51,392 bases of DNA from Staphylococcus phage MVC_VPHSA1: sequence record OR670591.1; one strand, given 5' to 3'. The position numbers were made by a program, and so were the translations under genes. The notes beneath the pieces are model-generated. The model was not told where the DNA came from. It ran no database searches and saw only the letters and a list, made by a program, of their open reading frames with translations. Of this stretch, positions 25-51,392 are shown one piece after another. Position 1 is the first letter of the stretch, and the number at the start of each line of letters is the position of its first letter.

Positions 25-888
25 CCTCCTTTCCCTCGATGCGGTCAACCTCTAGCAAGTACGATACAGAACTTTAAAAGGGAGGAAATCCGTATGAATA
101 ACCATGAGAAGGCGCTAATTGGACGACTCAAAAGAACGCCCTTGAGGTAGCCGAGGAGATTAACAACATGCAGTATGACAAGTCTAGGAAAAGCAAGGCT
201 GAGCTAGTGAGGAAGCACCTTGGAGAAGCCACTATTATATGCGGTGCTATCAAGAAAGACACTGGTAAGATATGCACAGCTGCCCCTGTGGAGGGTTCTA
301 AGAGGTGTGCTATACATGGAGGCTACTCTACAGGTCCAGCTACAGAGGAGGGCAAACAGAGAGCCCTAGCTAACCTATCTCCACAGGCTAATATGATACA
401 CGGTATATATTCACGCTTTGTATTTACTACTGAGGAGAGTGACTTCTATGCATATATGATGAGTGCATATGAGGAAGCATACGACCTAGACTTAGCTAAC
501 CTGATGCTGCTAGACAGAGCACTAAGAAACTTCATACTCAACCAACGTAAAGAGATAGCACTGGCTGGTGAGCAGGTAGATGAGAGCAATAGCTACAACG
601 ATTATGATACTAAGTTCCTACGTTACATGCAAGCTCTTGGCTTTGACCGTAAGTTTAACATGAGTAAGGAGAACAAGAACAACAAGGGAGACAATACTGT
701 TGTGTTAAACCAATTGTTTGACTTTGGAGACGATAACTAACAACTTCCGATAACCTTAATTATGTAAACTAAGGAATCGCTTAACCATGCGGTTTTGTTT
801 GCTTATTCGCTTTTTATGCAAAGTTGACTGTATGGTTATGCAACTTCCTTGAATAATTATGAGACCCACCCACCCTCTCAAGCACGCA
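25..888. repeat. left copy of long direct terminal repeat (matches 50531..51392; >=862 bp)
   Basis: Near-identical sequence at both window ends (offset 50504). The copies differ by one G in a G-run (83-85 vs right copy) and a 2-nt indel at the boundary. The first ~24 nt of the window are not repeated. Confidence 0.85.
168..740 (+). CDS. putative terminase small subunit / DNA-binding protein (diploid, inside terminal repeat)
   Basis: 190-aa ORF immediately upstream of HNH+terL, with a Cys-rich N-terminal region (CGAIKK..C..C). RBS GAGGAG 9 nt upstream. An upstream ATG at 94 has a strong GGGAGG RBS; its 18-codon ORF would fuse to this frame if one A is added in the A-run 130-134. Confidence 0.4.
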   Translation: MQYDKSRKSKAELVRKHLGEATIICGAIKKDTGKICTAAPVEGSKRCAIHGGYSTGPATEEGKQRALANLSPQANMIHGIYSRFVFTTEESDFYAYMMSAYEEAYDLDLANLMLLDRALRNFILNQRKEIALAGEQVDESNSYNDYDTKFLRYMQALGFDRKFNMSKENKNNKGDNTVVLNQLFDFGDDN

Positions 889-978
889 TAGTGACATTTT
901 TTGACGCAATAGAACCACTTTAGAAAATTTGTATGAAAAGTTTTTACCTATAAGCAAATTTGTAGAGGAGGAACAAAC

Positions 979-1356: not shown

Positions 1357-3030
1357 CAGCTGAACAACTCAAGCACATGAGAAACGTAATGCGTGACCCA
1401 GTAGGATTCACTGAAACGACTGGCACTGTTAAGGAAAACCCTTTCGCTTTGACCACAGAGGTCACTTGCATGATGTCTACAGAGACCAGCACCCTCGTAT
1501 TGTCATAGTAGCTGGACGACAAGTAGAGAAATCTGAGACAGTTGACCGCCTCGCTAAGTTCGCTGGTTTTCAGAGAGCTCATACAACGATTACCTACACA
1601 GCTCCACGACAAGAACAGACAACGAGGTTTGTAAACGATAGATTCCGTAAATCAATTGCAGAGTCCAAACAGGGAATACTTGAAGGAATGGTTGACCCCA
1701 AAAGGGATGCCAAGACAGCTATCGCTCTCAAAAACTCAACAGTATACTATTTTGGTTCAGCGTGGGCTGACGGGGATGCTCTACGTGGTATCTCTGGGGA
1801 TATTGTATTTTTTGATGAGGTGCAAGATATTACACAAACAGCTATTGAGTCAATTGAAAAGTCCGTCTCGCATAGTGAAATTACTGACCCAGTAACGGAG
1901 CTAAATGGTCGATGTTTCTTTACTGGCACGCCAAAACAAAAAGGTTCTTACTACGATAGAGTACTTTGGGGACAGTCTGACCAGAAGAAATGGTCAGTAT
2001 GCTGTGAGAAATGCGGTCATGACCAATTTATGAGCATGAACAACATCAAGGTACTTAACGAGGGAGAAGAAGATGAGCGTCGCTATTTTGGTTGCGTGGT
2101 CTGTGAGGAAGAACTAAACAGAGAAAACGGTCAGTGGGTTCGTACAAGACCTATGAACAAAATGTATAGTGGCTACCTATTCAACCAGCTCAACATGACA
2201 TGGATTAGTGCAAACCAAATCTGGCGTGACTACCAGACAATGGACGCTATGACTTTCGCCAACGAGGTACTGGGAGAGTTCTATAGCGGTGACGAGCAGC
2301 CAATTACTCTTGAGGACGTTCTAGCTTGTACTGACAAGAAGCAGTCTCTCAAGAAATACTCTGACACGCCAACAGCTATGGGGATTGACTACGGTAGTGG
2401 CGGTAAGTCTAAAACGATTATCTGCATAGGACACTATGAGGGAAGCAAACTCGCTATTGACCATATAGAAAGCTGGTTGCCAGACCCAGAGAGCGACAAA
2501 TCAACTCATGACCAGCTCATCGAGCATATTTGCTACCTACATGGTCGCTTCAATGTTCAAAAATAGTAGGTGACATTGGTTACGGTTCTTACGAGTCGCA
2601 AAAGCTCTATGGTATCTATGGAAGGGACGCTATAAGTTGCAGGTACGTGACGTACTCAGCTGACCCTCGTAAACGTGAATACAAAGGCTTCAACGATTCG
2701 ACTCTACAGGTTGACCGTACTTATTCAATGGATAAGCTTATTAACATGTTCCAAAAAGGTCAATTGATTATCCCTTACAAGAAACCCGAGGACGTTGAGT
2801 ACTTCTTTGACCACTGGACAGCTATAGAAATGATTTTCACTGAGAGTACTACCTCTACAGGTGCAAAACGCTACGACCACAGAACTCCAGACGATGCTTT
2901 CCACGCTTTAAACTATGTGAGGGAGGCACTACACGAGGTTATGAACCGCTTTGAGTGGGATTACGTAGAGCGAGATATTGATAGAGTAGAGCAAGCTCTT
3001 GACTATGGGGACGACCTACCAGACTGGTAA
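1347..3030 (+). CDS. terL: terminase large subunit, reading frame interrupted twice (1347-1509 / 1466-2566 / 2530-3030)
   Basis: Walker A (VAGRQVEKSE), Walker B (IVFFDEV) and a C-terminal RNaseH-like nuclease region (MGIDYGSGG, VGDIGYGSY). Frame changes sit next to A-runs at 1435-1441 and 2559-2565. Strong RBS GGAGGT before the ATG at 1347. Confidence 0.85.
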
Positions 3031-5398: not shown

Positions 5399-5438
5399 AA
5401 AAAAGGGGCTACCTCAACAGGTTAGCCCTTTAATTTTT
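5393..5438. terminator. bidirectional rho-independent terminator
   Basis: A-run, then hairpin GGGCTACC-tcaaca-GGTTAGCCC (5406-5428), then TTTAATTTTT. Located between the convergent + gene (ends 5398) and - gene (ends 5422). Confidence 0.7.
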
Positions 5439-5613
5439 GCTCAGTAGCAAAGTTGTCTGTTAGTTGCAGCAATTGAGAAGCAACCTCTTTAGTCTCTGGA
5501 AACTGGCTCATTGAATCCAACACGCCAAGCACTCCAGCAAATACCATTGAGGACTTACGAGCGTCTAGCTCATTAACGTTACTAAGAATTTCTTTCACTC
5601 GTGCTTTCTCCAA
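5422..5613 (-). CDS. hypothetical protein (63 aa), minus-strand island
   Basis: ORF with TTG start directly after the in-frame TAA of the upstream minus gene. GGAGG 8 nt upstream, embedded in the upstream gene. Confidence 0.45.
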   Translation of the reverse strand: MEKARVKEILSNVNELDARKSSMVFAGVLGVLDSMSQFPETKEVASQLLQLTDNFATEQKLKG

Positions 5614-6008
5614 TTAGTTCGCCTCCAAGATAAATTTTCGTAGGTCTTCCAGTAATAGCTTAGCAGTTTCAAAGTTTAGGTTAATAGCCATGTTGTCATA
5701 ACCAAAGTCAATCCAAAGGACTTCTCTGTCGTAGTGGTCCAATACTTCCTCAGCTTGGAAAGCGTCTGACTGGTCGTTTGCGTCTGGATAAACTTTGTAG
5801 CCAGAGTCATCGTCAGAAGGCTCAAAAGCTGAATGCATGTAGCCAAACACTTGGTTTTCAAACTCCTTAGCAGTTTCAACGTCGATAGCAACAACTTTGT
5901 CTAGCTCACCGTTTTCATAAGCAGCAATTGAGTAGATACCCTTTTAGGTAACGCCTCACAAATCATACTATCTCGACTATCAGTTGCACACTTTAAAGTT
6001 AAACTCAT
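5614..6008 (-). CDS. hypothetical acidic protein (~130 aa; frame change near the A4/G3 run at 5940-5947)
   Basis: The ATG at 6008-6006 has RBS GAGGGAG. The downstream part (5614..5850 in the ORF track) is rich in D/E (EPSDDDSGY...DANDQSDAFQAEE). Lies directly downstream of the minus-strand promoter at 6041-6069. Confidence 0.45.
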
Positions 6009-6040
6009 TCAAACCAGCTCCCTCATCAATTTATGTACTC

Positions 6041-6069
6041 ATCTTACCATAGTCATACCAGCAGGTCAA
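6041..6069 (-). promoter_or_regulatory. sigma-A-like promoter on minus strand (TTGACC-17-TAAGAT) with GGTATGAC element in spacer
   Basis: Reverse complement of 6041-6072 reads TTGTTGACCtgctGGTATGACtatggTAAGAT. It is nearly identical to the + strand promoter at 36828. Confidence 0.55.
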
Positions 6070-6072
6070 CAA

Positions 6073-6291
6073 CTATTTTGTAACTTTGTAGAAAATTCTT
6101 TTATGATTAACCCAGTGAGCCAGATACATAGCGTCATAGCCAGCTTGGAGAAGCTTATTAGTCGTTTTTCTGCCTCGCAATTCATAGTAAACGCAAAGAA
6201 CTAAAGAGTATAGCATCTTAGTTTTCTCTAAGAGTGTAAACCTATTAGTACTAGTTAGTATCTCAATAGCTCTTTCTTTTAGCTGAATCAA
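6073..6291 (-). CDS. hypothetical small basic protein (72 aa); candidate regulator
   Basis: The protein given in the ORF track is encoded only by the reverse complement. TTG start at 6291 with a perfect AAGGAGGT RBS 8 nt upstream on the minus strand. The track labels it + but it is minus. Confidence 0.55.
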   Translation of the reverse strand: MIQLKERAIEILTSTNRFTLLEKTKMLYSLVLCVYYELRGRKTTNKLLQAGYDAMYLAHWVNHKRIFYKVTK

Positions 6292-6310
6292 TTTAGGTAT
6301 ACCTCCTTAG

Positions 6311-6398
6311 TTAACTAATTAGTTAATAACTATATAGTTTTAAAGTATTTAAAATCTTTAATATCTATGAGGTAGAACTAATTAGTTAAGCTATTTAG
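6311..6398. promoter_or_regulatory. AT-rich control region with perfect 16-bp palindrome TTAACTAATTAGTTAA (6311-6326), second copy AACTAATTAGTTAA (6376-6389), TATGAGGTAGA (6366-6376) and TAAGCTATTTA
   Basis: Self-complementary sequence read directly. The same motifs recur at 49367-49471. Confidence 0.5.
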
Positions 6399-6524
6399 TA
6401 ACCCTCAAAAGATATATGAATTAGGTGTTTACTCTTTAGCTTTAACTGTCAGTTTCCAAAGATAAACACCCCAGTCATATATATAGTGTAAGGACAGTAC
6501 GGAATTTACTTAGGAGGTGGAAAG

Positions 6525-11994: not shown

Positions 11995-14900
11995 ATGGCT
12001 AATATAGTGGATATTATTATTAACTCCAGAGACAACGCAAGTGCGAATATCGGTAGAGTTGGTCAAGCGCTAAACGGACTACAGACTACAGCAGGTAGAG
12101 CTAATGCTGGTATGGCTGCTTTGCAAGGCGTTGGAGGTATGGCTATGAGTCAGTTAGCTGGCTCTGTAGTCGGTGGATTCGTGAATATGATTCAAGGTTC
12201 TAGAGACTTTGAGGCAGCAACTCGTAGAGCAGCAGTTCTTTCTGGTGGTAACTACAACACAGTAAAGAAAGACGTTTTAGATATGGCTAAGAGCTCGGTG
12301 TACAGCACGACTCAAGTAGCTGACGCTTTCGCAGAGTTAGGAGCTAAAGGTTTCGACTCAGCTCAAGCTACAAAAGCTTTGCCAGGGGTTTTAAGCGCAG
12401 CAGCAGCCTCAGGGGAAGATTTAGGAATGGTAGCCGACACAATTACCTCAGCACTGAACGCCTTTGGTATGGAAGCCTCTCAGTCTTCTCACGTAGCTGA
12501 CGTTTTAGCAATGGCAGCAAACGCAACAGCAGCTGGCGTAGGTGATATGCAGTATGCCTTCAAGTATGCAGCAGCACCAGCTAACGCTCTTGGTATCTCG
12601 ATGGAAGAACTTGCAGCCTCAGTAGGTATTATGTCCAACGCAGGTATTAAAGGCGAAACAGCAGGTACAGCTCTAAGGTCTGCAATGTTACGACTTGTTA
12701 AACCTCCAAAGGCAGCAGCTAACATGCTTAGAGACTTGGGAGTAAGTACTACTGACTCAGACGGTAAGATGAAATCACTAGCTCAGATTACTGGAGAGCT
12801 CGGAAAAGGTATGGAAGGAATGACCCAAGCTCAGAAGGGAGCAGCTTTAGCGACAATTTTCGGTACTGAGGCAGTATCAGCAATGATGAGTCTCGTTGAT
12901 GCTGGACCAGAAAAGCTGCAAAAGCTTACAAACGAGCTAGTCAACTCTGGAGGCAGCTCTAAGAAGGCAGCAGACCAGATGCTTGATGGCTGGGCAGGAG
13001 CAATGACCAAAAATGGAATCAGCTCTCGACGTTACAGCTCGTGCATTAACAGACGCACTAGGACCAGCTTTAAACGTAGTAGCTACAGGAGTAATGAACT
13101 TAGCTAACTGGTTTAATGACCTTTCTCCAGCAGCTCAATCTGTTATAGGTGGACTACTTGGCTTTGGTGCTGTAGTAGTTGTAATTGGCGCAGTCGTTTC
13201 AGCTATTGCTCTATTAGCTCCAGCTTTCTTGAGCGCACTTGCAGCAGCAGCTCCATTTATCGCTATTGGAGTAGCTATCGCAGGAGTAGCAGCTATTATA
13301 ATTTCTCAGTGGGAAACTGTCAAGCCATTTTTCGATAAAGTTTGGCAAGCAATACTACCAGCAGTTCAAGCATTCAAGCAAACTTTTCAGAACACATTCG
13401 ACAACTTAGCTAGTGCGGTTGGTCCAATCTGGGACAAAATCAAACAAGTGTTTAAATCTTTAGAGCCAATTATTTTAGCAATAGGGGTTGTGCTAGGTGG
13501 ATTCCTTGTAATTGCACTCTCAGTATTTAACGGAGTAGTAAACGCAATAGCTCCACTTTTAGATGCTTTCTTGAGCGTCATTGGTTGGGTGAGTGAAATG
13601 GTTCAAATGGTTGGTTCTCTACTAAGCGGAGACTGGCAGGGAGTTATGGACCACTGGAACAATGCGAGCCAGTTTGCTGTTGACTTCTTTAAGTCTCTTT
13701 GGGATGCGCTAGTCGGTTTCTTTGGCGGAATCTGGGACAACATTAACAACGTGCTAAAGTCTTACGGAATTGACATAGTTCAGAGCCTTACTGATATGTG
13801 GAACTCAGCAAAAACAGCAACGTTAAACTGGCTCAGTGAAACTGGTTCTAGTATCTCTAGTGGATGGAACGACATAGTTAACTCTGTGACTCAGTTCTTT
13901 ACGGATATTGGTAACTGGTTCTCGAACGGATGGAATACAGCTAAGACAGCGACTATCGAGTTTCTGACTCAATTGCTTACTGACTGGTCAACGAACTTGA
14001 ACAATATCTTAACAGCAGTTGGCAACTGGTTCAACGAGGTAGGCAACTGGTTTGCTCAACTTCCAGAAAGAATCTTGTCAACTCTACAAGGCTTGTGGGA
14101 GCAATTCACTACATGGTGGGGTAACTTGTTTACAACAACGAGCCAGATTGTATCTGATGGAGTTAATGCTGTAAAGCAATTCTTCCTCGATTTACCTATG
14201 AACATTGTTAACGGTCTAGTGTACGGAGTAGGTTTCATTATCGGGGTATTCGTTGGATTATTCCTAGGAATCTCAAACGCAGTACAAAACGGTATACAAA
14301 TTGTGATTCAGTTCTTCAAGGAACTTCCAACTAACCTGTACAACTTAGCCATTCAAGCTAGGGACTGGGTAGTCAACACGATTAGCAACATGATGGAAAC
14401 CGCTAAGACTTGGACTCAACAAGGCGTGCAAGCAGTTATTACTTTCTTCCGTGAGCTGCCAACTAACTTGAGTAACCTTGCTAGTCAAATGAAAGAGTGG
14501 GTTGTCAACAAGTTCAACGAAATGGTAACGAGTGCGAAACAGTGGGTTAACGATATGGTCAACTCAATTAAGAACTGGTTCAAGAACATGCAAACAGATG
14601 CGAGCAACTCAGCAAACCAGATGGGTAGCCAAGTCAAGCAATGGTTTACTGATATGGTTAACCAAGCTAAGCAGAAAGTAAACGATATGGTTAGCGGAGT
14701 TAAACAGTGGTTCTCTGATATGAAAAGTAACATTAGCTCGACAGTGAGCTCAATGGCTTCCTCTGTTAAACAATGGTTTACTGATATGATGAACAACGCT
14801 AAGAACGCTGTTAACAGCGGAGTCAACAACATTCGTACTTTCTTTAGTAATCTTCCAAGTCAAATTATGGGATACATTACTAATTTAGCGAGCAACTTAG

Positions 14901-15468
14901 TTTCTTCTTTCCGAAATATGATGACTAACGCAGGTAACGCTGTGAGTAATGGAGTTACTAGCATGGTCAATGCGATTAAGAACTTTGGAACTAGCTTTTA
15001 AACGCTGGTAAGGGGCTTATTAACGCTTTCGTTGACGGAATAAAGAATACTATAGGGAAAGCTGTTAGCGCTGTTCAAGACGGTATGAACGCTGTCAGAC
15101 AGTACCTACCATTCTCACCTGCCAAGAAAGGACCGCTAAGCGACCTAGACAAATCTGGTGAGTCATTCTTCCCAACTTGGTACGAGGGAGCACTAACTCA
15201 AGTAAAACCTATGTCAAGAGCTATCGCAGGAGCTATGGGACAAATGAATGACCAGATGCAAGCTGAGTTCGGAACCGTTGGACTTGAAGCCTTCACAGGT
15301 GGCGGCAAGCAACAAGTAACAGTTACTCACGAGCACGTCATGACAGGTAAGATTGAGGTAGAAGGCGACGGAGGCAACAAAGAAACATTTGACTTGACAG
15401 TACAAAAACTACAAGAACAACAAGACGAGTACTGGAAAGATTTAAAGCAAGCATTTAGAAGAAAATAA
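11995..15468 (+). CDS. tape measure protein (three frame pieces: 11995-13107, 13013-15001, 15001-15468)
   Basis: Gly/Ala-rich N region, hydrophobic segments, long W/N/Q repeat region. Breaks at the A5 run 13008-13012 and at TTTTAAA 14996-15002. Confidence 0.85.
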
Positions 15469-27397: not shown

Positions 27398-27579
27398 AAC
27401 TTGTATATGTGCATATGAGAGATTGTGACGCACCAGTTAAGCTGGAAGTAAGTGACCACGAGGCAGGAGTCATAGCTCTGAGATTGGAGAGCGCTCAGTA
27501 TGACTTTGTAAAAGTTGGCTCATTGGTATTACCTAAGTGTGACATTCAAAAAGTTAAATTTACGGAGGTTGGTAAGTAA
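27394..27579 (+). CDS. hypothetical protein (61 aa)
   Basis: ORF with overlapping start (ATGA). Confidence 0.35.
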   Translation: MKLVYVHMRDCDAPVKLEVSDHEAGVIALRLESAQYDFVKVGSLVLPKCDIQKVKFTEVGK

Positions 27580-29899
27580 TGGTTATTATCTTACGAGGAA
27601 CGATTGAGGAAGAATACAACGAGAGTAAGTTAGTTAAGTCAATTATGGACGCACTCGCTGTTGATGGACTGACAGCCGAGCAAGGCGCTAAATATCTGGA
27701 TAGAGTGAAACGTTTCGTAACTCGTAAGCGTTCCATTACGACTGATGCAATACGAGAAAAAGCTATTCAGTTAGCTCTAGAGCAAGTAAGTACTACGTCT
27801 CAACAGTGGGACGCTGTAGCTCGTAACTTACGTTTGCAACAACTATATAGCGCAGCTCGTAAGAATCGCCAAGGAGCTATCTACAACGAGCATAAAGACT
27901 CGCTTGACTATCTTATTACTAAATTAGTACACCTTGGAGTATATGCTCCAGAAATGAAAAGCAAATTTACTTTCCAAGAGATTTGTACTTTACAGAAAGC
28001 CATTATTCCTAAACGTGATAAGTTACTAAATTATGCAGGTCTTACTATGTTGGCTGACCGTTACAACGCTCAAGATAACGAGAAAGGTGTCTGGGAGCTT
28101 CCTCAAGAGCGTTGGATGGCTATGAGTATGTTTATACACCAAGACGAAACAAAACACCGTATAGCACGAATTATTGAGGGATACGAGGAGCTGAGCCAGC
28201 TTAACGGTACAATGGCAACTCCAACTATGGGGAATGCAGCTAAAGCGTTTGGTCAGCTATCGAGTTGCTTTATTGATACACTGGACGACTCACTGGAAGG
28301 TATCTACTTCAATAACGTTGATGTTGCTCGACTTAGTAAAGCTGGTGGAGGACTTGGAGTATATGCTGGAAACATTCGAGCTCTTGGAGCACCTATTCGT
28401 GGATACAAAGGAGCAAGCGGTGGAGTCGTGCCTTGATTCGACAACTCAACAACACAGCTGTTTCGGTTGACCAATTAGGAAAGCGTCAAGGAGCTGTAGC
28501 GGTTTATCTTGACATCTTCCACAAGGACATTGAGAAGTTTCTTGACTTACGTTTGAACAACGGAGACGAAAAAGAACGAGCTCATGAGATTCACCTTGGC
28601 GTATGTATTCCTGACTTGTTCATGAAGACTCTCAGAGAGGACGGAGAGTGGCACTTATTCTGTCCTTATGAGGTAGAACAGCACATGGGATGGAAACTAC
28701 AAGACTCGTATGACGAGAAGGGGAGAGAAGAAGGTGGGAGCTTTACAGAACGCTATAACGCTTGTGTTAGTAACCCGTTATTACCTCGTAAGACTGTTAA
28801 GGCGATAGACCTTTACATTCAGATTTTCAAGAGTCGCCTTGAGGGTGGCGAGCCTTACATGTTCTACAGAGACGAGGCTAACCGTAAGAACCCTAACAAG
28901 CACGCTGGTATGATTTACTGCTCGAATTTGTGTACAGAGATATTCCAGAACATGAGCCCGACAGTCTTCTTGGAGGAGGTTATTGTCAAGGATAACGGTA
29001 AGAGACAGAAACAGCTAACATTCGAAATGGGTGACTTTGTAGTATGTAATCTAGCAAGCTTGAATCTTAGTAAATTTGTTGGAGAGAATCGCAAACACCT
29101 AGCTCAGTCAATTAGAGTATTTATGAGAATGCTTGACAACATTATTGACCTCAACAAGTCACGTATAGACGTAGCTCAAGCAGTTGATACCAACGACAGA
29201 TACAGAGCTACTGGGCTTGGAACTTACGGACTTCACCACTTAATGGCACTAGAAGGAGTACCTTGGGAGTCAGAAAAAGCTATCGAGTTTAACGACAAGC
29301 TGTATGAAGAAATTAACTTCCATGCGATTACAGCCTCAATGGAATTAGCTAAAGAGCGTGGAGCTTACGAGTTATTCAAAGGCTCTGACTGGGACACTGG
29401 CGCTTACTTTGAAGACAGAGGCTACATTTTACACGACGCTGTAACTTTTGAGACAGTTCACTGGGAACAACTTGCAGATGAGGTACATGAGCACGGAGTC
29501 CGTAACGGAAACATTATGGCTGTAGCTCCCAACACGTCTACCTCAGTGGTTGCAGGTACTACAGCGAGTCGTGACCCTATCTTCAACTTAGAGTACAGCG
29601 AGGAGCGTAAGGGCTTCAAGTTTACTGTAGTAGCTCCAGACTTATCGCCAGCCACTTTCCCTTACTATGCGAAAGGTGCTTTCAATATGGACCAATCTTG
29701 GAGCGTAAAGAGTACTATCGCAGCTCAGCGCCACGTTGACCAAGGAATTAGCTTTAACATGTACTTCAAGAAAGGCGTACAGATTCAAGAAATGTATGAG
29801 CGTGATATGGAAGCTTGGGAGGGTGGACTAAAAGCCACTTACTATGTAAGAACTAAGAACCCTCAAGAGATTGAGGATGACTGTGTTGCATGTCAGTAG
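27579..29899 (+). CDS. nrdE: ribonucleotide reductase large subunit (class I NrdE/NrdA-like), frame change ~28425-28440
   Basis: Motifs AGGGLGVYAGNIR, AVAVYLDIFHKDIEKFLDLR, SNLCTEI, and a C-terminal Cys pair CVACQ. Confidence 0.85.
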
Positions 29900-32597: not shown

Positions 32598-35500
32598 CTG
32601 ACAAATTACAGGTAGTACAAGAAAAGCAAACAGTATCTTATGTAGAAATTCATACTCACAGTTGTGGAAGCTTTAAAGATGCACACTCTAGAGTTGATAA
32701 GTTGGTAGCGAGAGCTAAAGAGCTTGGTCAAAAGCTGTTGCTCTTACTGACCATGGCGCACTCCACTTGATTCCTTCATTGTTCGCTGAGTGCGACAAAC
32801 AAGGTATTAAACCGTTAGCAGGAATGGAAGGATATATTACAGAAGTCAGAGGCGGTCATGGTAAAACTACAGAGAACTACCACCAGTTATATGTTGTAAA
32901 GAATCAGACTGGTTGGCGCAACCTCATGAAGCTCAGCTCAGAGGCTTACCGTACTGGTTTTCACAACAGACCAAGAGCTGACTGGGAACTACTTGAGAAG
33001 CACCACGAGGGGCTTATAGCAACGAGCAGTTGTCTTGCTGGAATGATACCTCAAGCTATACTGAAAGGCGAACTCAAGGAAGCTAGAAGGCTTACAAAGC
33101 GTTTTGTTAATATCTTTGGCGACGACTTCTATCTTGAGATTCAACCTACTCCACAAGCAGAGCAGTACATCGTTAACAAGGAGCTAGTCAAAATAAGTAA
33201 AGAGCTTGGAGTCAAACTCGTAGCGAGCGGTGACGTTCACTATGTAAATGCAGAGGACAAAATAGCTCACCAAGGTATGCTCTGTCTAGGTCGTGGAAAG
33301 AAAATGCTTGCAGAAGATACTCCAGAGTATCCATGTGAGGAATACTACTACATGAAAGATGCTCGTGAAATGGCTAGTATCTTCATAAAGAACGGACTAG
33401 AAAAAGCTCCAGTGATTGAAGCCCTTAACGCTACTCTTGAGATAGCTGACAAAGTAGATTTTAAACTTGAGAAGGTTGAAGGTTTGCTCCCTCAGTTTCC
33501 AGTAGCAAAAGGAACTACAATTGACAAAGAGATTGGCGCAGCTGTCAAGGAAGGACTACTCAGAAAAGTACACCCAGTAACTAAGACGTATGTGGACCGC
33601 ATTAACTTTGAGCTGGGAGTTATTCGTGAGAAAGGCTTCCAAGATTACTTTATGATTGTATCTGATGCGCTCAAGTTTTGTAGAGCTAACCACATTATGA
33701 CAGCACCAGCTAGGGGCTCAGCTGGAGGCTCACTAGTCGCTTACTTGCTAGATATAACTGAGGTTGACCCTATACCACATGGATTGTACTTGAGCGATTC
33801 CTAGATATTACTCGTTTGAAATTCCCTGATATTGACACAGATATTGAGGATGTAAGACGTTATGAACTCATTGAGTATCTACGTGAAAAGTATGGTCGTG
33901 ACAAGGTAGCACAGATAGTGAACACGGTGTACATGACAGCTAAGACAGCTTACAAGAACGCACTCGCTATTTATGATATTCCTTTGGTGAATCTCAACGG
34001 ATTACCAACTTAGTACCAGACGGACTGACTCTTGAGGAAGCATACGCACAAGTCCCAGAGCTACGAAAATTGAGAACTAGCTCAAAGAAAATGAAACGCA
34101 ACAGCAAGAAAGCTAAAGAGAACAAACACATACAAGACTGGGTATATGAAAAAGACATTGCTCAGATGGCTGAACTATTTGAGGGAGTGCTTGAGAAGTT
34201 TGGGAAACATGCAGGAGGCGTGCTCATAAGCCCAACGCCAATTACAGACCACTTCCCAACGTTCTTACCAGACCCAAATGGAGCACCAGAGAACATTGTA
34301 ACTCAATGGAACAAAGACGAGATTGAACAGTATGGAGGCATTAAGTTTGACTTCCTTGGTTTAAAGACTCTGAGAGTAATAGGTACAGCTTTGGAGTCAA
34401 TCTACAGAGAAACTGGTGAGCGTCCTGACATCTTGCATATAGCTAAAATGGCTAATGACCCAGAGGTATACGCTAAGATTGCTAGAGGCGAAACAGCCAA
34501 CGTCTTCCAGTTTAACTCACAAGGTATGCAGCAGCTTTGTAAATCTGTTAAGCCAACTCGATTCGAGCACCTAGTAGCCATAAACGCATTGTACCGACCA
34601 CCAGCTCTAGCCTCTGGAGATACTTGGCGCTACGCTCGCATTAAGAATGGTGAGGAAGCAGAGCACTACAGCCACCCTGACGAGCGTAACATTACAGGTG
34701 AAACCTTTGGAGTCATTACCTTCCAAGAGCACGTTATGGAGATTGTACACGTTTGCTGGTTGGGATTACGGACGAGGCGACAAGTTACGTAAAGCTAGTG
34801 CTGAGGAGCTTGAAGCTATGCGCTCAGAGTTTATTGAGGACGCACTCAACAAGTACGATTTTAACCCAGACAACACTGAGTTTGTTAAGCAGATGGATGA
34901 ACTATGGAGTCGTATTGTACGCTATATGGGTTACGGTTTCAACAAGTCCCACGGAGTAGCATACTCAATGATAAGCTACATGACAGCTTGGTTAGAGCAC
35001 CACTTCCCTACTCACTTCCAAGCAGCACTTATGAGCACGAAAATGAGTGACCTAGACAAAATAGCTCAAGTCTTTCAAGATGTGCGACGAGAGGGCTTTG
35101 ACTTCCAAGCTCCAGATATTAATAAGTCTGGTCTTACTTTCATGGCTACAAGCACTAAGATTGTATTTCCTCTCTTAGTAATTAAAGGAGTAGGTGACGG
35201 AGCTGTAAAAGGTATTCTGGAAGCTCGTGAAGCTGGCAGGTTTACTTCTCTTGAGAACTTCATGGAACGTATTGACCGACGAGTTGTAAATGCTAGACCT
35301 ATGAGACCACTTATACTTGCTGGAGCGTTTGACGAGATAGAGCCAGACCTAACAAGAATGGAAGTACTCGTTAAGTATTACAAGCTCAAAGGTGATTCGA
35401 AAAAGAAAATTGCAGAGGTGGAAGCTGAGGAGTGGAATGAGAACATAATGGCTGAGTACGAAAAAACTTTACTTGGCGTTTACATTACAGCTCACCCTCT

Positions 35501-35779
35501 TGAGAAGTACCACTTTAAAAACTGGCAGGACTTTGCAGAGGGCTACAAGAAGACTCTTATTGGTGGCTGTGTGACATCTATTAAGACGATTAATGACCGC
35601 TCTGGTAGACGAATGGCTTTCGTAGGGATTGATACTCTACAGGGACTACGTGAGGTCACAGTCTTTGCTAACCAGTTTAAAAGTATGAACACCTGATTGT
35701 CAAGAACAAAGTAGTCAAAGTCTCTGGAGAGAAACAGGGAGAGAAACTATTGGCTAACAGAATCGAGGAGTTGAACTGA
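32594..35779 (+). CDS. dnaE: DNA polymerase III alpha subunit (DnaE-type), split into >=5 frame pieces
   Basis: PHP domain (VEIHTHS, AVALTDHG), a palm region with PDIDTD, and a C-terminal OB region. The last open segment reaches the TGA at 35777-35779. Track fragments are 32767-33804, 33816-34013, 34070-34792 and 34647-35696. Confidence 0.85.
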
Positions 35780-41422: not shown

Positions 41423-41701
41423 ATGAAACCGTGGAAACCGCTAGACATTAACTCATTAGAAAGGAATACTCCAAAGTTCAAAGGTAGCAAAGCAACACGA
41501 GCTGGTGACTTAATTCATGTCAAGTACCAACTAAAGAGAATGGTCATTCACAAGGATACGATTCACTTTGCTGCTGCTGAGCGGAGATTCTGGAGAGGTT
41601 GGTGTCTGGTAGTTAACACTCTTGGTGGTCAGCATGTCATGAAGATGAATAAGAAGTATGCTAGATTGACTGCTCAACATATAAACGCAATGACTAGGTA
41701 G
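41423..41701 (+). CDS. hypothetical protein (92 aa)
   Basis: ORF followed by a terminator. Confidence 0.4.
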   Translation: MKPWKPLDINSLERNTPKFKGSKATRAGDLIHVKYQLKRMVIHKDTIHFAAAERRFWRGWCLVVNTLGGQHVMKMNKKYARLTAQHINAMTR

Positions 41702-41727
41702 GGACTAAAAAGTCTCTACTTTTTTTA
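41698..41727 (+). terminator. rho-independent terminator
   Basis: Hairpin GTAGGGAC-taaaaa-GTCTCTAC with one G-U pair, followed by TTTTTTTA. Confidence 0.6.
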
Positions 41728-41874
41728 TGCCTGATGAGTTCTAAGACATTCTGCTTAGTGTATACCTTATAACATACCAATTAAATTGCTCAGCTGGAAG
41801 TCACACCGAGTATATACCAGATGCAGTCATGTAGCTCCTCAACCTCACTTTAGAGGATGCTCGATAGATGTAAC

Positions 41875-41891
41875 TATTACTTACAGTAATA
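41875..41891. promoter_or_regulatory. perfect inverted repeat TATTACT-tac-AGTAATA overlapping a TAATAT -10-like hexamer in a 200-bp untranslated leader
   Basis: Read directly from the sequence, upstream of the FtsK-like gene. Confidence 0.35.
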
Positions 41892-41925
41892 TAACACTGT
41901 GGCGCAGCTAAGGAGGGAAAGCAAA

Positions 41926-43066
41926 ATGATTTTCGAGGCAGCAAGCACTATGCTTATGGGAGGGATTTCTCTCTATGCATACTTGAAGCAAAACGGAGCA
42001 ACAAACGACCAGCAAAGAATCCAAAAGTTATTTACTTTAAGTGGTCTGAACGTGAAGCACGGAGGCAAGACCTACACAGCTCAGCTGGTCCGAAAAAACA
42101 ACATGACTGGGGCGTCCAATATGTGTACCGTATTCCAGAAGGTCGTCAATTTAGTGACTACGAGGACAAAATAGGAATCCTAAAAGATGGACTGAACAAC
42201 AGAGCTGCTAAATTCAACCTCAAAAGTTTTCTCAAAAGGAGAAGCTAGGAGGACACAAGGAAGTAGAACTCAGCTTTGATGGAATGCTACACGTTAAGGT
42301 ATATGACCAACCATTTCCTACAGAGATTCCCTACCTCACAGAAGATACTAAGGGCTGGAAAGTACCACTAGGAGTCAAGCGAGACGGTAAAGAGGTGTAT
42401 CTGGACTTTGAGAAGACTCCACATGCAGGGCTCGGAGGTGCTACGAGATACGGTAAGAGTAACTTACTCAATAGTATTATCATTTCATTGTTGCACTCTC
42501 AGCCAAACAATACAGAGTTTACCTTCATTGATTTAAAAGGAGGAGTAGAGCTCTGTGACTACGAGAACTTAAAGCAAACCCAAAGTATTGCTTATGAGCC
42601 AGAAGAAGCTCTCAAGGCTCTGGAGGCTGCTTACAATGGTATGCGTAAAGTACAGAACAAACTCAAAGGCAAAGCTAAGAAGGTACAGGACGCTGGCTTG
42701 CTCAAGAGACACTTTATTATCATTGACGAGGTAGGAGAACTGAACCCAGCAGAAGCAACTGACAAGGCTGATAAGAAACTAAAAGAGGAATGTCAACGTT
42801 ACATGTCCCAAATAGCTCGACTCGGGGCTGGCTTAGGGTACAGACTGATAGTGGCTACACAGTACCCAACTGGTGACGTTATTCCTCGTGCAGTCAAACA
42901 AAACTGTGACGTTAAGATATGCTTTCGAGTTCGTAACTCTACAGCCAGTCAAGTAGTACTTGATGAGGGAGGAGCTGAAAAGCTTCCAGCTGTGAAGGGT
43001 AGAGCTATAGTGCAATTAGCTGACAAGCAAGAAATACTCCAGACATTTTTATTAATACTGAGGTAA
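41926..43066 (+). CDS. FtsK/SpoIIIE-family DNA-translocase-like ATPase (three frame pieces)
   Basis: Walker A HAGLGGATRYGKSNLL and Walker B FIIIDEVGE. RBS AAGGAGGG before the ATG at 41926. Breaks lie next to A-runs at ~42096-42101 and ~42226-42230. Confidence 0.55.
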
Positions 43067-43123
43067 TTAGCCAAGTCAGCTCTCCATATATTACTAATAT
43101 AAGCAAAAGGGTGGTGCTCGCAG

Positions 43124-43729
43124 ATGAAGAAGAAAGCATTATCAGTGAGGCAGGAGCTAATACTTTTATCCTTGAAGAAACACGGTTTTCTAACTAGAGA
43201 CCAACTTGGAGCTATTCACAAGCTAGGTAAGATACGCAATGTTAACCGTATACTCTCAGACCTCTCAGAATACCTCCAGAGCTTTCGTGAGGGATACGAC
43301 ACAGTTTACTACCTCAATAGCAATGGAAAGGATTACACGCAAGCCAAGAAAGCTATGAGACGCACTCAATACGCTTATCATACTATTATGCGTAATCAGT
43401 TCTATATTTATGCAGGTCAACCCAAAGACTGGAAAGTTGAAATTAAACTGGGAGACAAGAAAGAGAGTAAAGTCTGTGACGCTTGGTTTCAGATGAATGG
43501 CTATTACCATATTTTAGAGGTTGATAACCAACAGAAAATGAGTGAGAATAGAAACAAGCTTAAAGCATACTCTGGTATGAACGAGCGAGGAGCTATTACT
43601 AAACATTTTGGTTACTTTCCTCCTATTATCTGGGTTACTACTACTGAGTTAAGACGTAAGCAACTGGTTAAGATGTGCGACGAGTTTGGTCTGTCTCATC
43701 AAGTATTAACGATTATGGACATTAAATAG
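43124..43729 (+). CDS. replication-relaxation family protein (winged-helix N-terminus)
   Basis: N-terminal pattern LSVRQELILLSLKKHGFLTRDQLGAIHKLGKIRNVNRIL is typical of the replication-relaxation family, which partners FtsK-like ATPases in Gram-positive mobile elements. Confidence 0.45.
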   Translation: MKKKALSVRQELILLSLKKHGFLTRDQLGAIHKLGKIRNVNRILSDLSEYLQSFREGYDTVYYLNSNGKDYTQAKKAMRRTQYAYHTIMRNQFYIYAGQPKDWKVEIKLGDKKESKVCDAWFQMNGYYHILEVDNQQKMSENRNKLKAYSGMNERGAITKHFGYFPPIIWVTTTELRRKQLVKMCDEFGLSHQVLTIMDIK

Positions 43730-43743
43730 AGGGAGTGGTCAAA

Positions 43744-44231
43744 ATGTTTAAACGTAAAACAACTATTAAGTTCAGTGAGTTCATGTCTGGTGAGTATAAA
43801 ACAAAAGAGAAAGCAGCTCGTAAGAAAAACAAAAGGCTGTAGTACGCTCGCTGAGTGCAATAGCTGTTCCAGCTTTGACTGGTGGCTCTGTCTTACCATT
43901 AAGCTTAGCCTTTGCAGCAGCTCCAGCGTTCGCCTGTGAGCAGAAAGCTGTTGAGGTAGCTGGTGGTGGTGTGACTGAGGGAGTAACACATTTTGTAAGC
44001 AAACATACACTAGAGGTGATAGCTCATTCGCTTGACCCTGTAGTTGAAATACTGGTCGCTTTCGCCTTTCCAGTTGCCTCTGTAATCATGGCTGGTGCGT
44101 GCTTCCTGTTCATGTTTAACCGTGCAGACCGTGGCTTTGAAATGATACAGCGAGCTGGGTTAGGTTACGTACTCATACAAATGCTTCCATTCTTCCTAAA
44201 TGTTCTCAAGGAAATTGGCTCAGCTATGTAG
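43744..44231 (+). CDS. small secreted/membrane protein (frame change in AAGAAAAACAAAAGG ~43822-43836)
   Basis: Signal-peptide-like LSLAFAAAPAFA, then two hydrophobic segments. Confidence 0.35.
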
Positions 44232-44239
44232 TATAATTG

Positions 44240-44257
44240 GTATGAGCTTGGTCATAC
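44240..44257. promoter_or_regulatory. inverted repeat GTATGA-gcttgg-TCATAC immediately downstream of a TATAAT hexamer (44232-44237)
   Basis: Palindromic version of the GTATGAC element. Confidence 0.45.
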
Positions 44258-44290
44258 TATAAGTAAATACAACTTGGGAGGTAGTCAACA

Positions 44291-44502
44291 ATGAAAAAGT
44301 TAAATCAGTGGCGTTTCAATTAGCAGACCCTATGGAGTTCAAGCTGTTCCATTTCTCAATGAAGCAGTCATACTTTTCAACATACGTGAAGCGACTTATA
44401 CAGCGTGACATGGAGCAAGGCAACCAAATGTTTTCTCATGAGTGGGAATCAGCTTATGAGGACTATATGGCAGACCCAAAAGAATATTTGAAAAACCTCT
44501 GA
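44291..44502 (+). CDS. hypothetical protein (~70 aa; frame change in AAAAAG 44294-44299)
   Basis: RBS GGGAGGT before the ATG at 44291. Confidence 0.35.
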
Positions 44503-44503
44503 G

Positions 44504-44531
44504 CCCTTGCCCTGCAAGGGTTTCTTTTGTT
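44504..44531 (+). terminator. rho-independent terminator
   Basis: Perfect hairpin CCCTTGC-cct-GCAAGGG followed by TTTCTTTTGTTT. Confidence 0.65.
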
Positions 44532-44576
44532 TGTCGAGAAATGTCGAACGAATAAGTTAAAATAATTAAAAAAATG

Positions 44577-44606
44577 TTGCAACTTTAGTAAACACCCTGC
44601 ATAATA
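44577..44606 (+). promoter_or_regulatory. promoter TTGCAA-N4-TAAACAC-N3-TGcATAATA (extended -10), followed by GGTATGAC at 44635-44642
   Basis: Near-identical architecture to the promoter at 48174. Confidence 0.55.
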
Positions 44607-44669
44607 TGAAGCACAGAGCAAGACAACACCTCAAGGTATGACTGAGGTAAAACCAAAGGAGGCAACAAA

Positions 44670-45905
44670 ATGGATAACTTAACGATTGTACAGGAGCAAG
44701 CTAATACGTTTACTATTGCAGGTGCAAAATTCAAATTAGTTAATGAAATTTCTGTCGAGGCTATGGCAAAAATGGAGCAAATTATCAGTATCAACGAGCA
44801 AGAAATACCTATACCGCAATATATGTTTGAAAGACTTGGCAGAGGTCACTGTGGAGGCACTTGGGCTATCAGTGACACACACGTACTCAAAGTAAATGAA
44901 ATACACAATAGAGCTGATATAGACATGGACCGCTTTGTTGATGGCGAGTGTCTGGAAACTCTACAAGGTTTACCAATGACTCCAAAGTTATACGCTTACT
45001 CAGAGTGCAAACAGTACATGGTGGTTGAGAGACTTTACGGTATGCAAACTGGAGAGGTAATGTACAATATGAATGCTTTCCCAGCAAAGATGGGACTCTC
45101 AATAGTACCTCAATTGTTTGATTGGAAACACTGGATACAACAAATTAACGAGTTTGTCCGAGAGAGCTGTAAACGTGGTTGGAATCCAAAGGACCTACAC
45201 GGAGAAAACTTGATGCTGACTAGAGAGGGAAAGATAGTCATTGTAGATTATGGACTATTCGAAAAGCATGGAGTACACAACAACGGAATAAGAAGCAAAT
45301 GGAGTTTTGATGAGGAGATAAAAGAAATGACTCGTCAAGTCAAGAAAATAGCTAAAGAGTTGCTTCCAAACGACTTCTCAGAAATTAACCAATATGTTGC
45401 ACCTAACTTGTGTACTTGGGAGGAGTTTCAAAAGCCAATCGAGAAAGAAGCTAAGGAGATTGTCAAGCGCTATAGTTTGACTGCTCATCTTGATGCTGAG
45501 GGGTATGACCAAGGTAACACTAGAGGAGATATTGCTGACTTTCTAGAAAAGTTTTGCCAACCAGTCGAAATCCCAAAAGCTGAGCCATTCAAGCCAATAG
45601 TTATTGACTGGGGACACCACAGAGGCAGCATACGACACATTGGAGCTGCTAAACACCAAGCCCTTAACCCAGTAGCCAATGCTGCATTATTTCAAGATAT
45701 TCGACCTCTTGTAAGCTTTCACTTGAATGACGGAGGAGTAATCAGAGAGCTAAAGGACTTACAAATTAAACCTGTTGAGCCAGTGAAATTCCCTAAGATT
45801 GAGTTTGATGTTGACAATGCAGTTAAGCAATTAGAAAAAGCTGCTGGTGGCTTCAAAGCATTATTCCAAAATATCAAAGGAGTGAAGAATAATGAGTTAT
45901 TTTGA
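44670..45905 (+). CDS. protein-kinase-like (APH/ChoK/eukaryotic-like kinase fold) protein, 411 aa
   Basis: Gly-rich loop GRGHCGG, lysine context VLKV, Brenner-type catalytic motif DLHGENLML, and DFG-like IVIVDYG. RBS AAAGGAGG. Confidence 0.5.
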   Translation: MDNLTIVQEQANTFTIAGAKFKLVNEISVEAMAKMEQIISINEQEIPIPQYMFERLGRGHCGGTWAISDTHVLKVNEIHNRADIDMDRFVDGECLETLQGLPMTPKLYAYSECKQYMVVERLYGMQTGEVMYNMNAFPAKMGLSIVPQLFDWKHWIQQINEFVRESCKRGWNPKDLHGENLMLTREGKIVIVDYGLFEKHGVHNNGIRSKWSFDEEIKEMTRQVKKIAKELLPNDFSEINQYVAPNLCTWEEFQKPIEKEAKEIVKRYSLTAHLDAEGYDQGNTRGDIADFLEKFCQPVEIPKAEPFKPIVIDWGHHRGSIRHIGAAKHQALNPVANAALFQDIRPLVSFHLNDGGVIRELKDLQIKPVEPVKFPKIEFDVDNAVKQLEKAAGGFKALFQNIKGVKNNELF

Positions 45906-50530: not shown

Positions 50531-51392
50531 CACCTTTCCCTCGATGCGGTCAACCTCTAGCAAGTACGATACAGAACTTTAAAAGGAGGAAATCCGTATG
50601 AATAACCATGAGAAGGCGCTAATTGGACGACTCAAAAGAACGCCCTTGAGGTAGCCGAGGAGATTAACAACATGCAGTATGACAAGTCTAGGAAAAGCAA
50701 GGCTGAGCTAGTGAGGAAGCACCTTGGAGAAGCCACTATTATATGCGGTGCTATCAAGAAAGACACTGGTAAGATATGCACAGCTGCCCCTGTGGAGGGT
50801 TCTAAGAGGTGTGCTATACATGGAGGCTACTCTACAGGTCCAGCTACAGAGGAGGGCAAACAGAGAGCCCTAGCTAACCTATCTCCACAGGCTAATATGA
50901 TACACGGTATATATTCACGCTTTGTATTTACTACTGAGGAGAGTGACTTCTATGCATATATGATGAGTGCATATGAGGAAGCATACGACCTAGACTTAGC
51001 TAACCTGATGCTGCTAGACAGAGCACTAAGAAACTTCATACTCAACCAACGTAAAGAGATAGCACTGGCTGGTGAGCAGGTAGATGAGAGCAATAGCTAC
51101 AACGATTATGATACTAAGTTCCTACGTTACATGCAAGCTCTTGGCTTTGACCGTAAGTTTAACATGAGTAAGGAGAACAAGAACAACAAGGGAGACAATA
51201 CTGTTGTGTTAAACCAATTGTTTGACTTTGGAGACGATAACTAACAACTTCCGATAACCTTAATTATGTAAACTAAGGAATCGCTTAACCATGCGGTTTT
51301 GTTTGCTTATTCGCTTTTTATGCAAAGTTGACTGTATGGTTATGCAACTTCCTTGAATAATTATGAGACCCACCCACCCTCTCAAGCACGCA
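50531..51392. repeat. right copy of direct terminal repeat (truncated by window end)
   Basis: Identical to 25-888 apart from a G-run length difference and a boundary indel. Confidence 0.85.
50672..51244 (+). CDS. second copy of putative terminase small subunit gene (within terminal repeat)
   Basis: Protein identical to 168..740. Confidence 0.4.
   Translation: MQYDKSRKSKAELVRKHLGEATIICGAIKKDTGKICTAAPVEGSKRCAIHGGYSTGPATEEGKQRALANLSPQANMIHGIYSRFVFTTEESDFYAYMMSAYEEAYDLDLANLMLLDRALRNFILNQRKEIALAGEQVDESNSYNDYDTKFLRYMQALGFDRKFNMSKENKNNKGDNTVVLNQLFDFGDDN

Follow-up and report, generated by a model that had tools for sequence, protein, structure and literature searches.

Gene transfer by phages and gene transfer by conjugative elements are regarded as two distinct routes. 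An FtsK-like gene has been known in Bacillus phages for more than ten years, occurring in 24 of 93 Bacillus phage genomes (PMC4197329), and its function is still a guess. A "DNA translocation operon" of Bacillus phages was published in 2012 by Pathria et al., who described it in 0305phi8-36, a phage of B. thuringiensis in which it is dispensable in the laboratory, and reported homologues in SPO1, Gamma/Wbeta/Cherry/Fah, BV1 and GBSV1 (PMC3357382). In phage Fah the module is expressed as a delayed-early gene (PMC4113786), and its parts have been listed for the Andromedaviruses (PMC9658697). Here we analyze the corresponding locus, positions 41743–44531, of Staphylococcus phage MVC_VPHSA1 (sequence record OR670591.1; the whole stretch of 51,392 nucleotides is referred to below as the window). 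The locus comprises a leader followed by genes for an FtsK-type ATPase, a protein of the Replic_Relax family, a pilin-like membrane protein and a protein of 70 amino acids (aa), and on balance we read it as a module for DNA translocation that derives from conjugation and has the phage's own DNA as its substrate.

The operon of 0305phi8-36 resembles this locus in combining a nuclease similar to MobC of CloDF13 and bearing an N-terminal helix-turn-helix with a coupling-type ATPase and membrane proteins (PMC3357382). Its ATPase is VirD4/TraG-like with VirB6- and MreB-like partners, whereas here the ATPase is TcpA/FtsK-like and the partner pilin-like, and no cis site is reported in the 0305phi8-36 paper (PMC3357382), whereas here there is a conserved leader. 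The MOBC relaxosomes of the enterococcal plasmids pAD1 and pAM373 share with the phage a protein of PF13814, the MOBC relaxase family (PMC5357655, PMC12857230), in which a winged helix is joined to a PD-(D/E)XK domain. Their origin of transfer (oriT) resembles the phage leader in having 12-bp direct repeats beside an inverted repeat, and a coupling-protein gene is nearby; TraX of pAD1 binds five direct repeats 70–120 bp from nic (PMC12857230). pAM373 differs from the phage in having a full type IV secretion system (T4SS), a coupling protein of VirD4 type (TraM-recognition) and an inverted repeat of about 140 bp, whereas the phage has a 17-bp hairpin, an ATPase of TcpA/FtsK type and no mating channel. 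The plasmid CloDF13 has a coupling protein of its own, MobB. Compared by its description, CloDF13 is like the phage a non-conjugative element with a relaxase of the MOBC family, MobC (PMC3357382, PMC12857230), but it is a Gram-negative plasmid in which MobB is not FtsK-like and a pilin-like gene is lacking.

Two further kinds of system resemble the ATPase. TcpA of pCW3 and the FtsK-like coupling proteins of the Tn916/ICEBs1 family have an N-terminal membrane anchor, to which a putative one in the phage protein would correspond, and like the phage protein an FtsK-type motor without a gamma domain. TcpA, however, has two transmembrane (TM) helices where the phage ATPase has one putative TM helix, and it works with TcpM, a relaxase resembling tyrosine recombinases, and a complete Tcp T4SS. 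TraB of Streptomyces with its clt site and SpoIIIE, the pump of sporulation, are likewise membrane pumps of the FtsK family that use a cis site (8-bp repeats in the case of TraB) and move double-stranded DNA across septa (PMC5365140). Both read DNA by their own C-terminal winged helix and do not require a nuclease, whereas in the phage a separate protein would serve for recognition and cleavage.

Results and Discussion

The leader contains a conserved hairpin and 12-bp repeats

About 50 nt before the start codon of the ATPase gene there is a perfect 7-bp inverted repeat, TATTACT-tac-AGTAATA (41875–41891), which a preliminary description made from the window alone had already picked out as a possible oriT-like element. 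Within the window it is unremarkable (-3.4 kcal/mol, z -0.7), and its significance comes only from comparison with relatives, in which a hairpin with different arms occupies the same place (for example TCTTTAC/GTAAAGA, CTCTTAC/GTAAGAG, ATAGATTCT/AGAATCTAT and TGTTTC/GAAACA). When 17 distinct hairpins were aligned, 97.5% of the cells were paired and all seven pairs varied on both sides, with 37 double changes versus one single change; none of 500 shuffles reached the real pairing, and slid controls gave 32–45% pairing. A covariance model gave one match in the window (41870–41896, 29.8 bits, E 1.8e-4) and recovered 42 sites in 90 loci, nearly all of them just upstream of the ATPase gene. The alignment made by the model shows 96% pairing, with 58 double changes; over the two alignments there are 1–2 single changes, and slid controls range from 32 to 53%. 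In an independent set of bacterial genomes the hairpin was found at 25 of 51 loci, on the same strand and 30–65 nt before the start codon. Judged by sequence comparison, the inverted repeat is a conserved and covarying element and not a chance palindrome, and its description as an element of an oriT-like leader can be retained on the same grounds. Immediately 3' of the hairpin on the plus strand lies a conserved motif, CTGTGGCGC (41897–41905; family consensus (A)GAGGTGGCG), which is a candidate nick region or, alternatively, a candidate Shine-Dalgarno (SD)-like element of the mRNA.

Further upstream, short direct repeats with an ATACC core (41761–41818, plus strand) are located at 41762, 41774 (12 bp apart) and 41814, where they overlap a putative promoter; they may be the sites to which the Replic_Relax protein binds through its winged helix. 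The decisive test of these repeats was their periodicity across leaders and not the count of repeated 5-mers in each: identical 4-mers at exactly 12-bp spacing occur in 35 of 48 related leaders and at other spacings in 3–15 leaders, whereas exact 5-mer repeat counts taken leader by leader were not significant (p<0.05 in only 6 of 52). The leader of phage Wbeta reads ATACC-12-AGACC-12-ATACC. The oriT region of pAM373 contains five 12-bp repeats with the core TATGCC/TATACC/GTGCC beside a large inverted repeat, and at the level of sequence the leader repeats match these in both core and 12-bp period. The repeat core moreover covaries with the recognition helix of the Replic_Relax protein, TTCG-type repeats being accompanied by RNAQKVL instead of RNTNRVL at nine of nine loci. 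In distant modules consisting of the ATPase and Replic_Relax pair only (Page, Geobacillus), a simple scan revealed no clear hairpin or repeats. The oriT-like leader appears to be new, as no prior description of it was found in the accessible literature.

The ATPase and the Replic_Relax protein are related to conjugation proteins

The ATPase gene extends on the plus strand from the ATG at 41926 to about 43197 (424 aa in relatives) and overlaps the Replic_Relax gene; it is not the 260-aa open reading frame (ORF) of the window. The Pfam profile FtsK_SpoIIIE (PF01580) matches 42284–43063 with E 6.5e-17, and the Walker A motif GGATRYGKS (42437–42460) and the Walker B motif IIIDEVGE (42716–42739), both read from the sequence, are invariant in 30 homologues, in agreement with the initial assignment of an FtsK/SpoIIIE-type ATPase. 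Homologues of 421–454 aa with 63–68% identity are found across many Bacillales genera. A profile of the family has its best match among solved structures with 6o1w–6o1z, annotated as "DNA translocase coupling protein" (109 bits, 2e-30), and scores lower with EssC (84 bits) and FtsK (74 bits). The search output names no protein for the 6o1w–6o1z entries, which from the published structure we take to be TcpA of pCW3. Provided that this identification is right, the ATPase is by profile score closer to conjugative TcpA than to chromosomal FtsK (109 vs 74 bits).

A hydrophobic N-terminus, MIFE..TT.LMGG.AL.A.L, is conserved in the homologue alignment as judged by eye and is a putative single TM helix. 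Pfam detects nothing in the ATPase besides the FtsK motor domain, and the C-terminal gamma (winged-helix) domain is absent, only about 50 residues following the motor and ending in EETGLS. Beyond a variable linker this C-terminus (window about 43150–43197) carries a conserved acidic motif, ...IEETGLS, and the nuclease gene invariably begins 60–90 nt before the end of the ATPase gene; together the overlap and the acidic tail suggest translational coupling and perhaps a docking peptide. In one viral contig from IMG/VR (L040, 3001–4842) the ATPase and Replic_Relax protein are encoded in a single fused ORF, which may be natural or else stem from a frameshift in the assembly.

The Replic_Relax gene (43124–43729, plus strand, 201 aa) encodes a protein that PF13814 matches at 37.2 bits against a gathering cut-off of 25.3, so that the family first proposed for it is the one found by profile search; the same domain is present in 98 of 99 homologues. 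Residues from about 8 to 72 form a MarR-like winged helix and those from about 84 to 200 a PD-(D/E)XK nuclease domain with the restriction-endonuclease fold. Residues H86, R90, E106, D119, E132, D134, N142 and K145 are invariant, and because these acidic and lysine residues are unchanged in 50 homologues the alignment argues for a predicted active nuclease. Alignment by hhalign with the replication-relaxation protein of pAM373, which MOB-suite types as MOBC, gave a probability of 89% and E 2.2e-6 over 162 columns at 22% identity and covered both domains. On the profile evidence, the ATPase and the Replic_Relax protein are both homologous to conjugation proteins.

The third gene is pilin-like by family resemblance

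The third gene (43744–44231, plus strand, phrog_5422) encodes 162 aa in relatives and is broken in the window by a one-base homopolymer deletion at about 43830. What had been described as a small secreted protein (43875–44231) is really the 3' part of this gene. Among 26 members of the family, the profile PF18895 (T4SS_pilin) matches 23 (best 8.9e-6) and PF04956 (TrbC/VirB2) matches 14 (best 1.9e-7), and a search of the family against PDB sequences gave no match. In 39 sequences inspected by eye, a basic N-terminus is followed by a signal-like helix ending in AFA and by two hydrophobic stretches around GNSEKAW. By family resemblance the product would be a VirB2/T4SS-pilin-like membrane protein with two putative TM helices.

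A gene for a 70-aa protein (44291–44502, plus strand, phrog_8966), which has an artefactual frameshift at 44294, was added to the unit. Its Andromedavirus homologues are described as ribbon-helix-helix proteins (PMC9658697); its 13-member family matched nothing in Pfam or the PDB, and the fold is putative here.

The module is widespread in Bacillus phages and phage-plasmids

The nearest relative considered here, Bacillus phage DZ1 (isolated from sewage on B. cereus), shows 98.2% identity over 41700–44540, and phages Anath and S4-2 show about 76% over the same interval; we accordingly treat the present phage as one of Bacillus cereus. DZ1 is a siphophage of about 50 kb that encodes DnaB, primase, Pol III alpha, ribonucleotide reductase (RNR), ThyX, a sigma factor and a protein kinase; its annotation contains no integrase, and the window itself was not directly searched for integrase or repressor genes. 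A tblastn search with the Replic_Relax protein returned 103 phage records (97 from Bacillus and six from Geobacillus), in almost all of which an FtsK-like gene adjoins, as well as 124 plasmid records. In 90 fetched loci the ATPase gene was present in 89, the nuclease gene in 87, the pilin-like gene in 76 and the 70-aa gene in 20. The gene pair of the Wbeta group is a direct homologue of the present pair, the pair is also found in prophages of spore-forming Bacillales, and it occurs on phage-plasmids such as the B. cereus "plasmid" pBFR_3 (51.5 kb), which has genes for capsid, tail and lysis together with AimR and ParA.

Scanning a single genome from each species yielded 50 loci, all of them in endospore-forming Bacillales genera except one archaeal metagenome-assembled genome, and all phage matches of the family are likewise in phages of spore-formers. 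The exception is a 55-kb contig with a 55%-identical copy of the ATPase, assigned to a "Candidatus Bathyarchaeia archaeon" (DASQNU010000228.1; L130), and most probably comes from a Bacillales prophage or phage and was mis-binned.

The preliminary description had regarded the pair as foreign to phage modules and as a possibly recent acquisition. The first view is not tenable given the 103 phage records, the PHROG families to which all four genes belong and the published operon (PMC3357382). As to the second, the GC content over the module is 0.40–0.44, the same as in the remainder of the window, with none of the compositional discontinuity that a captured cassette had been expected to show; the block is present and syntenic in the related phages DZ1, Anath, S4-2, PK-1, BpsS-36, Andromeda and 276BB001, and thus in at least seven phage lineages, and it is the best-conserved part of the genome in comparison with DZ1. 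Recent capture was rejected on these three counts, and on the comparative evidence the pair is a normal, old component of Bacillus phages. Nothing points to the hitch-hiking of a satellite, which had also been raised. The interpretation first given thus holds as regards homology to conjugation proteins and a functional inverted repeat and fails as regards foreignness and recent capture.

Proposed function and alternatives

From the homologies and folds, the conserved catalytic residues, the linkage of the genes and the conserved, covarying cis-elements described above, we infer which protein acts on which site, where the nick is made, what is translocated and to where. The winged helix of the Replic_Relax protein would bind the 12-bp-spaced ATACC repeats of the leader, in doing so probably also repressing the overlapping promoter, and its PD-(D/E)XK domain would nick or cut nearby, most likely at or next to the hairpin and the GTGGCG motif. 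The processed DNA would then pass to a hexameric TcpA/FtsK-type ATPase anchored in the membrane by one TM helix, with the pilin-like two-TM protein as its membrane partner and the 70-aa protein as a DNA-binding accessory. Phage DNA would in this way cross a membrane or septum without a capsid, our first guess for the destination being the forespore or sister cell of a spore-forming host and our second a neighboring cell reached via a resident T4SS. A forespore or septal role is suggested because the family is restricted to spore-formers, has partition genes as neighbors on plasmids and is dispensable in the laboratory. Mobilization through a resident T4SS is suggested because three proteins of conjugation type occur together with an oriT-like site. 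That the DNA acted upon is the phage's own is proposed because the conserved cis site is part of the element and accompanies its genes.

It is possible, if doubtful, that the leader is a working origin of transfer of the MOBC type and that capsid-free genome movement is open to this phage and its many relatives, Bacillus phage-plasmids among them; the nicked genome would in that case be pumped by the element's own TcpA-like ATPase and pilin-like partner, either via a resident conjugative channel or across the sporulation septum. If so, these would be the first phages or phage-plasmids shown to use a route of the conjugation type. DNA movement into spores or neighboring cells would bear on the persistence of phages in spore-formers, including the B. 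cereus/anthracis group, on phage therapy and biocontrol and on the scoring of mobility in Bacillus "plasmids" that are really phages. The analysis shows that the operon encodes three conjugation-type proteins and is accompanied by a conserved cis site with the layout of a characterized MOBC oriT. Its function is now testable, as the site, the predicted catalytic residues and compensatory variants of the hairpin are defined.

Several observations weigh against a translocation module acting on phage DNA. No VirB4, VirB6 or cell-wall hydrolase is found in the DZ1 annotation or near the module, and the same is true of the plasmid copies; the module thus falls short of a complete mating apparatus. 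The triad of large plasmids adjoins ParA/ParM and not T4SS genes, an arrangement that fits maintenance as well as transfer. MOBC relaxases have no known covalent DNA intermediate (PMC12857230), which makes the piloting of DNA hard to picture. The pilin-like assignment comes from members of the family, the DZ1 copy reaching only E 0.19, below the cut-off; the link between recognition helix and repeat core comes from one clade; and the apparent confinement to spore-formers may be due in part to how far searches with exact peptide seeds and tblastn could reach.

The locus might instead be a replication or maintenance module, in which the Replic_Relax protein would initiate replication by binding an origin composed of iteron-like 12-bp repeats and a nick, while the ATPase would help in segregating or resolving replicated genomes, the whole being a plasmid-prophage backbone kept by virulent descendants. 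This interpretation is the one given in PMC9658697 and PMC11526630, and theta origins typically have iteron-like repeats to which a winged helix binds, but we consider it unlikely. PHROG 2190 is labeled "replication initiation protein" and the Pfam name contains "replication", but the label stems from annotation and not from experiment on these proteins (PMC3424549, references 156–157). The proximity of the triad to ParA/ParM on the phage-plasmid pBFR_3 and on large plasmids speaks for maintenance, whereas the phage itself encodes DnaB, primase and Pol III alpha, plus an unnamed gene beside the helicase, Wbeta carries DnaD/DnaC-like loaders elsewhere in its genome, and 0305phi8-36 grew without a defect once its homologous operon had been deleted (PMC3357382). 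Nor would an initiator be expected to have a membrane anchor and a pilin-like partner.

A second alternative, which we regard as distinctly unlikely, is that the leader acts in RNA, the hairpin and the SD-like GAGGUGG serving as a stabilizer of the 5' untranslated region or in translational control, and that the Replic_Relax protein is an autoregulating transcription factor only. The hairpin does lie at a nearly fixed distance (about 50 nt) from the start codon and on the same strand, GAGGTGG is like a Shine-Dalgarno sequence, and STAB-SD elements are known in B. thuringiensis. Pairs of the G-U type are nearly absent from it, however, with none in the six inner pairs (192 cells) and two in the outermost pair; as RNA it is very weak (-3.4 kcal/mol), the entire leader folds no better than shuffles (z -0.9), and a search of 41650–41930 against Rfam gave no match at E up to 10. 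For these reasons a DNA-level role is favored for the hairpin over a role in RNA. The overlap of the repeats with the putative promoter and the regulator role predicted for the family by Steczkiewicz et al. (PMC3424549) agree with autoregulation, but a pure regulator would leave the invariant nuclease residues unexplained. If the locus proved to be only a maintenance or regulatory module, the finding would be an ordinary one.

It is very improbable that the pump and nuclease are directed at foreign or host DNA, in superinfection exclusion, anti-plasmid activity or the control of sporulation (the last speculated on in PMC4197329 and PMC4113786): temperate relatives do carry the module beyond the lysis cassette, a typical moron position, and the ATPase motor domain matches the defense proteins SspH and mad8 in PADLOC, but these matches do not extend beyond the shared FtsK domain, no match to a defense family was obtained with the other three proteins, and the conserved cis site directly upstream travels with the genes on phages and plasmids alike.

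Layout of the transcription unit and quality of the assembly

Positions 41743–44531 are read as one transcription unit. Two intrinsic terminators on the plus strand, that of the preceding unit at 41696–41727 (hairpin 41696–41721, an 11-bp stem followed by a T run; -13.5 kcal/mol, z -3.2) and that closing the unit at 44501–44531 (hairpin 44501–44523; -14.1 kcal/mol, z -3.4), agree with the strong terminators previously placed on either side of the pair. A putative sigma-A-like promoter at 41743–41773 on the plus strand consists of AAGACA (-35, 41743–41748) and a -10-like TTATAA/TATAAC (41767–41773). It would be weak in this phage and was not called by a promoter scan of the window, and the leaders of relatives align there as (T)GGACA-17-T(A/T)nTAn.

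In the window the ATPase gene spans three frames with a premature stop in three-frame translation, A/T homopolymers being one base short at 42096, 42232 and 43046. All seven indels between DZ1 and 41700–44540 are one-nucleotide losses on the side of the window, and all lie inside A/T homopolymers; the same positions are one base short in comparison with a second, independent contig of 90% identity as well, in which the ORFs of 424, 194, 161 and 69 aa are intact. The genes for the terminase large subunit, tape measure protein, RNR large subunit and Pol III alpha each form one ORF in DZ1 and two to three overlapping ORFs in the window; examples of essential genes split in this way in comparison with the DZ1 annotation are at 1466–3030, 11995–15001, 27579–29899 and 32767–35696. 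Because the indels are without exception single-base losses from A/T runs, are also evident against the second relative and split essential genes too, the split genes of the window are, on these comparisons, assembly errors and not pseudogenes. A pseudogene or a programmed frameshift in the ATPase gene was considered and rejected in favor of homopolymer under-calling. The under-calling seems to be systematic, which makes ORF-based readings of the window unreliable. Of the features first reported for the locus, the homologies, terminators and inverted repeat stand, and the gene models, distorted by these errors, do not.

Window positions 94–933 and 50598–51367 both align to one segment of DZ1 (about 49800–48963), and each end of the window bears a 190-aa ORF (168–740 and 50672–51244). 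A test for exact 50-nt matches found no identical copy of the window-end segment, which means that the two copies differ; the arrangement points to a terminal repeat of about 0.8 kb or to a circularly joined assembly. The interval 5400–6500 is the sole stretch with reversed GC skew and low GC (0.37) and corresponds to three small opposite-strand genes among the structural genes of DZ1 (43792–44656).

Immediately beyond the terminator that closes the module there is a gene for a 411-aa protein-kinase-like protein (44670–45905; phrog_18305, "kinase", E 1.5e-57) with a promoter-like site of its own, TTGCAA-17-CATAAT (44577–44605). It gives weak PADLOC matches to PD-T4-6, and it is syntenic with the module in Anath, S4-2, PK-1 and BpsS-36.

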